Source: Eledone cirrhosa (lineage: Eukaryota). Taken from it: a stretch of DNA of 64,000 nucleotides. Below, in pieces: positions 5,998 to 39,516 of this stretch (the first letter of the stretch is position 1; every line of letters begins with the position of its first letter). Both the position numbers and the translations under genes were made by a program. The notes beneath the pieces are model-generated. The model was not told where the DNA came from, did no database searches, and saw only the letters and a program-made list of their open reading frames with translations. The DNA lies in assembly GCA_964016885.1 (NCBI GenBank), contig OZ024741.1, positions 126,790,001-126,854,000 of the forward strand, in the 5' to 3' direction.

Positions 5998-6041
5998 ACC
6001 GACTATGCATTTCAGGTTTAACTGGCCTTCGTCAGGACGGT
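5998..6041 (-). ncRNA. Minimal type-I hammerhead ribozyme
   Basis: accgtc CTGACGA agg-ccagttaaa-cct GAAA tgca TA gtcggt, with palindromic stem III ATGCAT. Confidence 0.8.
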
Positions 6042-6126
6042 CCCTCCCACCGCGTGCGACTGCTGGACTAGAAAACAGGTGAGAATATATACTTTTCTCG
6101 TCTGTGTAAATGAGGTGATTAATCTC

Positions 6127-6134
6127 ATTTGCAT
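6127..6134 (-). promoter_or_regulatory. Octamer ATGCAAAT with downstream gaaaagTATATA, upstream of HHR
   Basis: Exact octamer 92 nt upstream of the HHR core, with a TATA-like box about 35 nt after it. Confidence 0.45.
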
Positions 6135-6210
6135 AAGAAGCTGCATAAGTTGGCTCAACTTATAATAAAAAAGAAATAGGATTTCGCTTCAAGCATAGCT
6201 TTATACAATA

Positions 6211-7222
6211 CTAGCAGTAAAGCCCGGCGTTGCTCGGGGTCGCTCAGTAGCTGTGTTAAAGTTACAATGTTAAGTTTCTTTCTTGGCTTAAAAACTGTAG
6301 TGTCTACTGTGCAGACTTGCATGTGGTGTTTTTGATTAATATTCCCTCAACCAACAATATGCCTTATGAAGTTAAGAAAACATAACGATAACCCGAATGT
6401 TATAACAAAAGAGGATGCTGGGGATAGAAACTGCACTGGTTATTTATTAACAAAGATCGAAAATGTAAACACTGCAACGCAGAGAAAAACATTAGCGTAA
6501 CCAAATTATCAGTTATGTCTGTCTGCACGCCTATATCACCTCTCTGCACGACTGTCTGTCTGCACGCCTATATCACCTCTCTGCACGACTGTCTGTCTGC
6601 ACGCCTATATCACCTCTCTGCACGACTATCTGTCTGCACGCGTATATCACCTCTCTGCACGACTGTCTGTCTGCACGACTGTCTGTCTGCACGACTGTCT
6701 GTCTGCACGACTGTCTGTCTGCACGACTGTCTGTCTGCACGACTGTCTGTCTGCCGCCTAACGACGAAATATTTGCTTGTTTTACGTAGTCTTTAAATAG
6801 ACTTGTTTTCAAGTAAAAATATTGTTTTAAAATGCTTTTAAATGGAAATGAAGCAAAACGGAAGCTTAGTGTTCGAACTGATGAATTTTGCAGGTCAATA
6901 TTTTGCTGGCTCGACAACTGTTCGTGTATTGTGTTAATGTCATTTTAAACGCTGAGAAAGCCAGCGTAATTTTTTACGTAAGACGCTCAATGTAAACAGA
7001 ACAAAGGGAAATAACTGATAACTTACGCTCAAAAATCGATACATTATATTCGATTTCGTCACATAGGGTGGGTCAATTTGAAATATTTTTTTTTCGATGT
7101 CTTCGCTAAGGGCTCAATGTACAAGTATAGCAATTTCGATGCAATTCCGTCAGAGATTCTAAGAGGAGATGTGTGCCAAAAATCGATAGACAGACAGACA
7201 ACCACAGTTTTATATATATAGA
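6211..7222 (-). mobile_element. Non-autonomous Helitron
   Basis: The minus strand starts TC(tatatata..., GTCT repeats) and ends with the hairpin cccgagcaacgccggg then CTAG. It is inserted at A|T with no TSD, and excision restores the host repeat (compare 5876-5910). Confidence 0.85.
6517..6753. repeat. Minisatellite inside Helitron (16-bp ctgcacgactgtctgt and longer composite units)
   Basis: Directly visible tandem repeats. Confidence 0.9.
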
Positions 7223-7560
7223 TGTATAATATTTCGTATCTCCAAAGAAATACGGTTTTAGGAAGCCGTAGCTATGCAAACACCGGTGGGCTAACGCCCT
7301 CTGGTGATATATATATATATATTTATAGTAATAATAATAAATTTGAAGACTAAAATCCAAAGATTCTTTGCTTAAACTTTAATCCGTTATTTTAATAAAT
7401 ATATATATATATATTGTTATACTTTGGGAGGGTCATGTTGCCAATAAGAAACACACGCACCAATAGCTTTCACTTCAATTTATTATATATTTATAAATTT
7501 ATAAATTTATAAATTTCTGGTTGGTTGGTTGGTTCCACAACCAGATAGTTGTTTATATAT

Positions 7561-36988: not shown

Positions 36989-37130
36989 CACACACACACG
37001 CACACACACACACACACACACACACACACACACACACACACACACACACACACACACACACACACACACACACACACACACACACACACACACACACACA
37101 CACACACACACACACACACACACACACACA
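36989..37130. repeat. (CA)n microsatellite
   Basis: Directly visible. Confidence 0.95.
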
Positions 37131-37939
37131 GGAATGGATCCCTGTTGGTTTCAAAGATGCTTGTTTCAGTTGTTCTGAATAATCTGCACATACAATTAAC
37201 GAGTAAATGGCTCGGAATTCTACAGACACGCATACCCTTAACGTGATTCTCTGAGAACTTTTGCCTGGCTGTGAACTGCAGATTCATTGCATCCGATGGG
37301 ATTCCAAACCATGTTTCCTTTTGCCCAGTTACCGACACTTTATTCCAGGCAACTCTGCTGGGACTCCTCTAATCTTATCTTTCATTCAAATGAATATTTT
37401 TGCAATATATCTATAGTTTTGTTTCAACGAAAGAAAAATGATACGATCATGCACACATGCAGGTGCAAATATATATACGTTTTTATTTTATTTTTAAGAG
37501 TTCTAAAAATGGAAGGAAGAATAAGAATATTTTGTAACTTATAATATGGGATTGTTTAAGGCAATGACACGGATAAACGATTATTTTACAGATAAGAATA
37601 GTTATACGATTCATTGTGTAGTTCTTTAGTCGTCTGATTCGTTTCCAAATAGGTGTCACTCTTTTTAGACAATCAAATATCTATATTTATCTTTTTCAAA
37701 CTAAACCAAAGCAACCTGACTCCAAAACTATTCAGCATTCGTTGGTTTGTTTTATCGCTTCATCATAATTGCAAATGTAATATAAACTTCTTTTTTTCTT
37801 CTTTTCCTTCTTCTTTTCTTACAATCTTTCTTTTCCCTTCTAATTCTGTTCTTACTTTTTCTGCTTTTCTTTCTTTTTCTTCTGTTCCTTCTTTTTTTTT
37901 TCCTTATTGTTTTTTTTTCTTTTTTCTTTTGCTTCTTGA

Positions 37940-38100
37940 GCAAGTCAAACACCTTTCCTAAGTATCCTAACAAAACCAACCATCTCCAAACACCGACTGG
38001 ATCTCCAGCCAAGTTTATAGATGTATTCAACTATCTTTCTCGTTGTCTGCCTCTGGACCACCTACCGTAAAATCTGTTCTGTGATTCTCTCCTGATTCAT
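37940..38100 (-). mobile_element. Decayed RTE-like LINE 3' end
   Basis: ccagccaagtttatagatgtattcaac...tctgcctctggac resembles 11115-11185 and 51297-51360. Confidence 0.5.
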
Positions 38101-39187
38101 TGCTGTCAGGACTAAATATTGATTTCCTACTTTCTTCCTCCCATTATTATTCGTCTCGTTTATTTTCACTCTTTTTCTATTTTCAATCTCTATATTCAGT
38201 ACTATCAAATATTAAAATGTCGTCCATGACCTCTTCTGATTGCAACTTTAAACGTTTTCTTTTCCTAATTTTAAACCAGTTTATTCCACTTATAGCCAGT
38301 CAAAACTGACTATTTGTCGGTGCAGGCCAGCATAGGCTCCCAGAATCCTACTGTTTATCAATGTTGAAGGTAGATTAAATCATTGAGTAGATTATATCAA
38401 TAGATCAAATCAATCTCACCATACATCTAGCAATTCTATTTTTTCAAACGATAAATTGATAAGCAGATATTTTGGTGAAAAAGAAACAGAAATAACGATT
38501 TTTAAAGGGTCATCAATATAATATATTACTAAGACATACATTGGCAATTTATGAAAATTCTCATATGAAATTCCTGGCATCCCATATGACATGTCCGGCA
38601 TCCCTGCTATGGGCGTTTACATTAAGGAGGAAACAAAATATTTGGTGATTTAACGGAGATGAGTTTATATGATTGTGTTCAGTCGTAGATCAAAGTTATT
38701 AATATTTATGTTATCAACTCGTATTTTTGGATGGTTATGTCCTGTAAGAAACAAGAGAATTAATATCTGAATGAAATGAATGAAGATGCATTTAGTAATA
38801 CATGAACGTGGTATGGTTGAATGTTTATGAAGTTTGCTTGGCAATAATTAAGTCCCAAGCTTGATACCATTGTGTGGCATCTTGGGTAAGTGTTATTTAG
38901 TGTTGAATGTTTTTTGGTTGTTATTTTTAGCTATCCACATACCTATTCACATCACGTAGACAAAACTGAGTCGTGGTGGGGTTTTTTTCGAGACTCCATG
39001 AGTGTATCGGCCAGTTTCTTAGATTTGTTTTAGAGAAGTAAGTTCAGGTGGTTAGTTCTCTCTGGACGATAATCCTAATTAACCATTGAACTTAACCATT
39101 TCAAAAGTGAAACATGGTTCTGTAGCCATTAAGGAATTATGTTTTTCGCTCTAACATAGCGGATACATAAATGCATTCGTGGGTTTT

Positions 39188-39516
39188 TATATCGAATCAT
39201 AATAATATTCGATTCGTTAGCAGCGAAAATCCAAATTCTAATTTAATTTTTAATTTTTGGCAAAGCCAACCGTAAAATAGCTCGGTATGCAAATTAGGCT
39301 AATTAGCCGATGTATACTTCAGCGAATACCATATTTTACCAAGAGTTCTGAGTGACAGAAGAACGATACACAATCTTAACAAAGGGCAATAACTCAGAAA
39401 CAATATTATTGTCGATTGTTTCTCTCTGTCACCACGAGAACAAAAGGATGGTGATGGTGATCTAAAAAACATAGTGTTTGCTTGCAACGAATTGAATATT
39501 ATTATTATTCGATATA
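39188..39516 (+). mobile_element. Short element with inverted termini, octamer and decayed hammerhead
   Basis: Termini tatatcgaat.ataataatattcgattcgtt / aacgaattgaatattattattattcgatata. ATGCAAATtaggct at 39287. acaat CTTAACA...GAAA caatatt attgt at 39370-39412. Confidence 0.55.

Follow-up and report, generated by a model that had tools for sequence, protein, structure and literature searches.

Hammerhead retrozymes in the Eledone cirrhosa genome carry a putative internal promoter of snRNA type

Introduction

How retrozymes, which encode no protein, reach high levels of transcription is an open question. A 2020 review states that animal retrozymes seem to be without promoters and assumes that they are transcribed by read-through (PMC7761336), whereas an internal RNA polymerase (Pol) II promoter of the small nuclear RNA (snRNA) type has been reported for newt satellite 2 (PMC2220036). 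The hammerhead ribozymes (HHRs) of axolotl and newt have been described as having a palindromic helix III (PMC7229834), a form which has been linked to dimeric cleavage (PMC6155905), and a link to Penelope-like elements (PLEs) was proposed for retrozymes without long terminal repeats (non-LTR retrozymes; PMC7229834; Li, Clavereau and Pollet 2026, bioRxiv 10.64898/2026.07.22.740005). Here we analyse 64,000 nucleotides of Eledone cirrhosa DNA (assembly GCA_964016885.1, contig OZ024741.1, positions 126,790,001 to 126,854,000 of the forward strand; hereafter the window), in which a preliminary description had placed an octamer and a TATA-like word at regular distances upstream of the HHR core in five elements. 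We argue that the elements are non-LTR retrozymes, that the octamer-containing module is very probably an internal promoter of some kind and that, on balance, it is a Pol II promoter of the snRNA type in elements which are copied from two fixed sites in the manner of PLEs.

Newt satellite 2 is said to have been studied by Epstein and Gall in 1987 and by Coats, Zhang and Epstein in 1994; its promoter reportedly consists of an octamer plus a proximal sequence element (PSE), and its natural 5' end is said to lie 46-47 nt before the cleavage site. The schistosome Sm-alpha satellite was reportedly described by Ferbeyre et al. in 1998, and we know of no octamer/PSE layout in it.

Results

An octamer-hammerhead module in the window and across the genome

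The window has a GC content of 35% and is rich in (TA)n. All five elements carried the exact octamer ATGCAAAT on the ribozyme strand, and the distance from its last base to the HHR core was 81 nt in the array (34496 to 34577), 81 nt in the 28.7-kb copy (28768 to 28687), 86 nt in the 22.4-kb copy (22499 to 22413), 92 nt in the 6.1-kb copy (6127 to 6035) and 81 nt in the 39.3-kb copy (39294 to 39375), where the core has decayed to CTTAACA. A TATA-like word (TATATA, CATATA or CATATT) followed the octamer by 34, 34, 35, 35 and 35 nt in the array and in the 28.7-, 22.4-, 6.1- and 39.3-kb copies respectively. The octamer positions and distances first described, as well as the TATA-like word about 35 nt further on, were thus reproduced in every element. 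The elements are also diverged, as had been claimed, but they do not represent five lineages: the array and the 28.7-kb copy are 76% identical and form one family, leaving four families. Terminal-repeat offsets of 324, 424 and 421 were found beside the array period of 466, and a direct repeat was looked for in the 39.3-kb copy and not found. Of the 19 octamers in the window, the array holds 10 and the single copies 4, which leaves 5 elsewhere, with 4.6 expected from its composition, and seven other hammerhead-like motifs in the window had no octamer within 130 nt.

We searched the 3.0-Gb genome for the octamer followed after 76-96 nt by CTGAYGA and after a further 10-20 nt by GAAA, with the reversed pattern as control. 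This gave 30,912 matches versus 5 for the reversed pattern, which is the positional enrichment that the preliminary description had named as a check; a variant of the pattern leaving out the two largest families gave 4,490 versus 10. The octamer-HHR pattern is real, present in high copy number and well above chance. An HHR-only pattern, which does not select for the octamer, matched 41,339 times versus 47 controls. An exact octamer lay within 125 nt in 21 of the first 30 of these matches and, judged by eye, the other nine comprised two with a damaged site, six which were truncated or rearranged and one from an unassigned family.

A further 800 kb was sampled blind to the motif (400 kb beside the window and 400 kb at regular intervals along two other contigs), and here our script made 106 HHR-like calls. 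The octamer was present in 11 of the 13 HHRs with a CTAG helix III, in none of the 33 belonging to lineage J (described below) and in none of the 60 others; it was exact in 17 of the 18 copies which span the site. Two matches were set aside, one derived from a long interspersed nuclear element (L151 type), which is a chance match to the pattern, and one lying within a PLE-like repeat (L194). Contigs from sequencing runs (four of six sets) contained only subfamily variants, and such contigs cannot show starts, ends or circles.

We distinguished the octamer families A (A1, the array; A2, the 28.7-kb copy; and A3), B, C (6.1 kb), D (22.5 kb), E (39.3 kb), F, G, H and I. Between families the module aligned at 53-71% identity (28 pairs) while the bodies of the elements were near the level of shuffled sequence (46-64% versus 45-58% identity), which argues for a single ancestral module retained through deep divergence. 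The window array is a non-coding 466-bp tandem of 5 + 6 consecutive HHR units, and arrays of B, A3 and lineage J were found outside the window. No LTR, primer-binding site or polypurine tract was found in the tandem units, no search aimed at the latter two having been made.

The module and the host snRNA promoters

The module was compared with the U6, U2, U1, U5, U4, U6atac, MRP and U3 loci of the same genome, leaving out probable pseudogenes and disrupted copies (U6 L007, L014 and L015, 14 of the 15 U6atac loci and U4 L212) as well as near-identical array copies. The host promoter words all lay within about 105 nt (loci L001-L003, L219 and L234; L061-L127 and L199-L218; L235-L245). The 18 distinct U1/U2/U4/U5 promoters had an ATCAGT-type core at -55 to -59 (about -57), with an AATTA box 31-34 nt before this core. 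They also had a 3' box and, near -30, a TATA-like word, and a proximal octamer was found in none of them. The three U6 types, one U6atac and the single gene for MRP, a Pol III gene, had ATG(C/G)WAAT at -76 to -78 followed by NAG (TATGCAAAT plus NAG in U6 and MRP, with one mismatch in U6atac), and in these five promoters the octamer and the TATA stood 38-40 nt apart by eye. In U3 a word like the octamer stood near -72, about 32 nt ahead of the TATA (L243, by eye); a scoring PSE at -57 was absent, as was a 3' box. We regard the similar octamer-TATA distance of U3 as a resemblance and rejected U3 as the donor of the promoter. It should be noted that the assignment of U1-U5 to Pol II and of U6 to Pol III is general knowledge (PMC1761439, PMC9652321) and not data from this species.

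Several of the host genes form tandem arrays: U6 at C19:31.78-31.84 Mb (period about 1.8 kb), U2 at C3:307.35-307.45 Mb (about 2.2 kb), U1 at C2:180.97-181.00 Mb (about 2.7 kb) and U5 at C9:32.79-32.83 Mb (about 0.87 kb). A family B retrozyme lies beside an assembly gap at the start of the U1 gene array (L101:1-560).

A PSE matrix was built from the 18 host Pol II snRNA promoters and used to scan 130 positions per copy. Of 21 element copies, 13 had the site 7 nt past the octamer ranked first or second of the 130 and 16 had it among the top five, with scores of 3-8 in D, H and four of the five E copies; U6 and U6atac scored -8 to -17 at the same offset from their octamer. A TATA stood 25-28 nt after the start of the PSE-like core in 12 of 20 octamer representatives, where the host criterion is 23-30 nt. 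Judged by these words, the octamer families appear to combine an octamer, an ATCAGT-like site 7 nt further on and a TATA at U1/U2 spacing. The AATTA box 31-34 nt before the PSE was not found in the octamer families of the window. For the snRNA 3' box, D alone exceeded the 95th percentile of random sequence (8.7 versus 8.1), and elsewhere the scores were not below random expectation. GGCAG was considered as an obligatory initiator and rejected, since CAG was found 57-59 nt past the PSE in 11 of 20 representatives and not in A3, F, G or I.

Lineage J, which lacks the octamer and has ACGCGT as its helix III, consists of 310-bp tandem arrays (L340 at 3900-9330, L349 and L355; three in 200 kb of sampled C3 DNA) and two-armed insertions, with diverged relatives at L371 (minus strand, near 8600-8950), L304:2100-2450 and L336. 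It has AATT at -32 (four of the five letters of AATTA) and TATAAG at +27/28 from the PSE core, with a PSE score of 9.5, and its relatives scored 7.0 and 1.2. A score of at least 8 together with both TATA and AATT occurred at 0.17% of random sites in 3,000 trials, and a PSE of at least 5 with a TATA in none of 59 other HHR contexts. The octamer had originally been presented as part of every module; J keeps the PSE and the TATA without it, which corrects this. As J has the U1/U2 layout, the common denominator would be an snRNA-type promoter rather than the octamer itself. Judged by eye, J is like A minus a 15-nt octamer block, and it may be a distant relative of A. In the relatives of J the ribozyme core reads TTGATAA: C3 and G8 are replaced by U3 and A8, which is a compensatory change and is present in two diverged copies.

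An internal type-3 Pol III promoter like that of U6, starting about 30 nt past the TATA and giving multimers by leaky termination at T runs, would fit the finding that TATGCAAAT plus NAG stands at -76 to -78 in host U6, U6atac and MRP and not in U1/U2/U4/U5. It would also agree with the role of a TATA after the PSE, which specifies Pol III in vertebrates (PMC9652321), with the T-rich stretch that coincides with the distal fixed end of the copies (see below) and with the A1 and J units, which have only T4 runs. However, the octamer-to-TATA distance was 32-35 nt in 12 of 20 representatives and 38-40 nt in none; it falls short of that in the five host Pol III promoters by 4-6 nt. The TATA does not discriminate, since the Pol II snRNA genes of the host have a TATA-like word near -30 too. 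The ATCAGT core is moreover of U1/U2 type, and J is without the octamer. T5-T6 runs lie inside the A2, A3, B, C and D units, including those of the long-array families B and A3, and these would stop Pol III, which argues against this polymerase for a transcript with two ribozymes. We consider a Pol III promoter unlikely.

Histone H2B- and immunoglobulin-type promoters have a POU site upstream of the TATA, and an ordinary Pol II promoter of this kind, independent of SNAPc, would fit the observation that the octamer and the TATA are the best-kept words while the PSE is weak or absent in A, B, C, G and I; reading past one unit would need no snRNA-type machinery either. Since D, H, E and J have a strong ATCAGT at the same offset as the host, and D has tandem octamer-ATCAGT repeats, this explanation seems highly improbable.

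Ribozyme folding

HHRs were assigned by a motif-and-pairing script together with folding. No hammerhead family was among the best 150 of the 207 Rfam matches, and the microRNA matches found there were rejected as repeat artefacts, being look-alikes from TA repeats. The core, stems I and II and helix III paired in the array and in representatives of most families, and two of the window copies are broken; the HHR of the D copy is without GAAA, helix III and cleavage site. The helix III palindromes vary by compensation, with ACTAGT, ACATGT, ATGCAT, ACAGCTGT and ACGCGT being found. In the array unit helix III is ACTAGT, a U-U stands at the base of stem II and cleavage is predicted after 34607, so that the leader from the predicted start at 34561 would measure 47 nt.

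Ends of the copies and the link to Penelope-like elements

Counting from the first octamer base as unit position 1, the outer ends of A1 copies fell at positions 366-374 and 424-429 (9 and 10 of 21 ends) and those of B copies at 359-364 and 432-434 (6 and 10 of 17). In two-armed insertions one of these sites ends one arm and the other site ends the second arm, beside (TA)n. The window array has this form, with its arms head-to-head and overlapping by 3 nt at the junction; the outer end of the left arm is at unit position 370 and that of the right arm at 429, and both adjoin (TA)n. In J the ends of the two-armed insertions are about 30 nt apart by eye. Two internal reverse transcriptase (RT) starts make the tail of one PLE (PAc, PMC11167929), and an inverted arm and a bias to (TA)n have been described for others (Naiad/Neptune, PMC8557442). 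The elements examined here show the same signature of two fixed 3' ends, an inverted 5' arm and a microsatellite target.

The earlier explanation of the tandem form was that each unit carries the promoter for the next. With this signature the promoter does not account for the tandem form by itself, as the copies stop at two fixed sites and have inverted arms. The tandem form would reflect the copying of a multimeric or circular template, and the promoter would let multi-lap copies act as sources. As both start sites lie just upstream of the promoter, about one lap would capture the octamer and about two laps would set two ribozymes behind a promoter. Only the array does so in this window; the other four of the five elements hold a single or dead HHR and could not have released unit-length RNA.

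Pfam named no protein with RT and GIY-YIG domains in the 24 of 32 long open reading frames (ORFs) which were scanned. Weak GIY-YIG fragments were found at window positions 7522-8743 and 49037-49843 (Pfam E 2e-4 and 4e-4, under the curated cut-off), the first of which carries a minimal hammerhead-like motif in inverted copies at its termini, as is seen in Penelope-like insertions. At 130 kb from the window (L330:600-6200, C2:126.98-126.99 Mb) a 1,193-amino-acid ORF lies between direct repeats; its C-terminus is 60% identical to the window GIY-YIG fragment, no Pfam domain was named in it, and the whole looks like an intact PLE.

Other features of the window

The features of the window are listed in Table 1. 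The octamer at 16868, one of the five lying outside the elements, was absent from the preliminary description, and by eye its flanks are like family F copies. Other hammerhead-like motifs lie at 21684, 23540/23678, 26043, 43986, 46366, 46589, 48076 and 29733; these mostly have GAAATATATATA as helix III, adjoin (TA)n, are without the octamer and are probably Penelope terminal repeats. Near-perfect palindromes at 19751-20149 (arms of 197 nt) and 43307-43383 (shorter, with a sequence which recurs near 63863) are both probably inverted insertions of other repeats.

Table 1 Coordinates of retrozyme features in the window (1 = first nucleotide of the window).
Feature	Position	Strand	Remarks
Family A1 array, left arm	31515..34038	-	466-bp units, 5 HHRs, 5 octamer modules
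Family A1 array, right arm	34036..36781	+	6 HHRs, 5 octamer modules
Octamer ATGCAAAT in one unit of the array	34489..34496	+	
PSE-like site	34504..34516	+	7 nt past octamer; weak (score 0.5, rank 2 of 130 positions)
TATA-like word	34531..34536	+	34 nt past octamer; centre of a short dyad
Predicted transcription start	34561	+	Inferred only: PSE-like core start +57, as in host U1/U2/U4/U5
Type I hammerhead	34556..34624	+	Core 34577-34583, GAAA 34598, extended stem I
Family A2 copy	28391..29096	-	Inverted 5' piece, one HHR
Parts of A2 copy		-	Octamer 28775-28768, TATA 28733-28728, core 28687, predicted cleavage after 28657
Family D copy	22266..22814	-	Octamer 22506-22499, strong PSE-like ATCAGT 22491, TATA-like 22463
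Two extra degenerate octamer + ATCAGT repeats upstream of D module	22527..22584	-	PSE score 10.0 at 22535
Family C copy	5837..6210	-	Spans about 1.15 of the 323-bp units; 3' end at (TA)n
Parts of C copy		-	Octamer 6134-6127, TATA 6091-6086, core 6035, helix III ATGCAT, predicted cleavage after 6004
Family E copy	39185..39519	+	HHR core decayed (39375); 3' end at (TA)n; 5' limit approximate
Parts of E copy		+	Octamer 39287-39294, PSE-like 39302, TATA-like 39330
Probable family F remnant	16800..16890	+	Octamer 16868-16875, no HHR behind; limits approximate, likeness by eye
Family C fragment	7199..7308	-	Without promoter or HHR

Discussion

The reading which we favour, and which we hold to be rather more probable than its competitors taken together, is that these elements are non-LTR retrozymes with internal Pol II promoters of the snRNA type, copied in Penelope fashion from two fixed sites. 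The words of the module would recruit SNAPc/TBP and Pol II, with a POU factor on the adjacent octamer helping to load SNAPc on a weak PSE, and transcription would start about 57 nt past the start of the PSE-like core, 16-30 nt before the ribozyme core. Most units being without an snRNA 3' box, the polymerase would read into the next unit, where two hammerheads, probably acting as a dimer via the palindromic helix III, would excise a unit-length RNA that includes the next promoter. A host ligase would circularise this RNA, and a Penelope-type endonuclease/RT, after nicking (TA)n, would begin to copy the RNA internally from the two fixed sites, which lie just upstream of the promoter. About one lap would capture the promoter and about two laps would make a new source locus, while copies with a single HHR would be dead ends. 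Tens of thousands of elements would then likely drive their own transcription instead of depending on read-through. The proposal of a self-promoting, self-cleaving mobile RNA family is kept as far as a snRNA-type promoter-like module before an HHR motif in a mobile family is concerned; as a new kind of element it is not, since non-LTR retrozymes and the snRNA promoter of newt satellite 2 have both been reported already.

Several observations on the promoter words, the ribozyme, the copies and RNA structure weigh against this reading. The families share ancestry, so that agreement among them is not independent, and the offset of 7 nt from the octamer was picked after viewing the sequences; in a second set with a narrower range it was the best site in only 7 of 20. 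Comparison with the host PSE, which had been put forward as a check, gave a divided answer: the U1/U2-type ATCAGT was found in D, H and E, but family A, which is young and abundant, has a weak PSE (0.5 and -0.6), F scores near zero and C poorly (-4.3), and the PSE is absent from B (-12.3, rank 17), G and I. B, whose PSE is not recognisable, is young and abundant as well. The octamer plus NAG, as discussed above, resembles host Pol III promoters and is absent from U1/U2/U4/U5. Subfamily A3 (a 422-424-bp unit at L254, L263, L277, L278, L281 and L319) has an 8-nt deletion between the TATA and GGCAG, a start candidate, and is mobile at at least five loci, and 8 of 9 units of the A3 array at L277 carry ATGCATAT. 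U-U, A-A or A-G stands at the base of stem II in A, D and E, mismatches which may lower ribozyme activity, and beside these we set the report of cleavage in 1 of 9 Xenopus elements (Li et al. 2026, bioRxiv 10.64898/2026.07.22.740005). The outer ends of C are looser (7 and 3 of 17 at the two sites), and the tails are about 45-70 nt in A-C versus the 30-40 bp reported. No Penelope partner sharing the tail was found, tail queries having matched only retrozyme copies in the 800 kb sampled (0.03% of the genome; five loci inspected).

As circles, the units fold far better than dinucleotide shuffles (z of -4.9 to -10.3, 25 shuffles each). In most families a hairpin is predicted for the RNA, with the octamer as its 5' arm, and the TATA word lies within a dyad. 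These findings suggest that RNA structure could contribute to the conservation of the motifs, and they are what would be expected if the words owed their retention to RNA structure or to being recognised by the copying enzyme, with the arrays transcribed by read-through from neighbouring promoters, which is what the literature on retrozymes assumes. The variant ATGCATAT of the A3 array improves the hairpin, B thrives in spite of its missing PSE, and the 2020 review cited above also sees metazoan retrozymes as seemingly without promoters (PMC7761336). However, in HHR-selected subfamilies the octamer arm is constant while the partner arm of the hairpin varies, which pairing alone does not require. 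Three separate words stand at host promoter spacing, and J fits the U1/U2 layout with different hairpins, a layout seen in 0 of 59 contexts of other HHR classes. An explanation by structure or enzyme recognition appears distinctly unlikely to us.

If the snRNA-type reading is true, retrozymes would be self-promoting replicons, and snRNA-type promoters would be mobile in this genome by the tens of thousands. It leads to a prediction at base level (start at 34561, PSE at 34504, TATA at 34531) calibrated on host snRNA genes, and the natural variants without octamer, without PSE or with the 8-nt deletion provide built-in controls. Only tentatively, and with considerable doubt, would we extend it to SNAPc-type internal promoters as the general route of animal retrozyme transcription, in which promoter, ribozyme and internal Penelope RT start sites would make up a complete protein-free circuit that would have spread over 30,000 snRNA-type promoters across the genome. 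Under this extension, which is possible rather than probable, each of the two lineages would have its own dialect of the host snRNA promoter, octamer-proximal in one and U1/U2-type in the other, and transcription would start about 47-52 nt ahead of the cleavage site, as is said of newt satellite 2.

The module is a variant of an already described kind of retrozyme. Like the metazoan non-LTR retrozymes, the elements consist of tandem units, 310-470 bp long, which are AT-rich and non-coding and contain type I HHRs; they range from monomers to long multimers, are strongly self-paired and co-occur with PLEs (PMC7229834; bioRxiv 10.64898/2026.07.22.740005). A word search of the main text of these two accounts found an internal promoter described in neither, and two-armed insertions with two fixed ends were not found in the accessible parts of either. 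No publication on a snRNA-type promoter in invertebrate retrozymes was found in the literature searched, which was poor in subscription journals. With PLEs the elements share partial tandems, an inverted 5'-truncated arm, two fixed 3' ends forming a tail and insertion at (TA)n (PMC11167929, PMC8557442); unlike PLEs, they have no ORF. The schistosome Sm-alpha satellite is likewise an HHR repeat with an internal promoter, which has been reported to be of Pol III type (PMC2220036).

Newt satellite 2 is similar in its tandem unit of a few hundred bp, its type I HHR and its one-pair helix III with a palindromic tetraloop (PMC2220036, PMC7229834), a likeness by description. In contrast to the newt satellite, there is here a TATA-like word at host snRNA spacing, and there are at least eight octamer families and an octamer-less lineage. 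The host snRNA promoters share ATCAGT and the PSE-TATA spacing in the case of U1/U2/U4/U5, the octamer plus NAG in that of U6/MRP and the octamer-TATA distance in that of U3. None of the host genes examined has this exact combination, and in the retrozymes the putative promoter lies inside the mobile unit.

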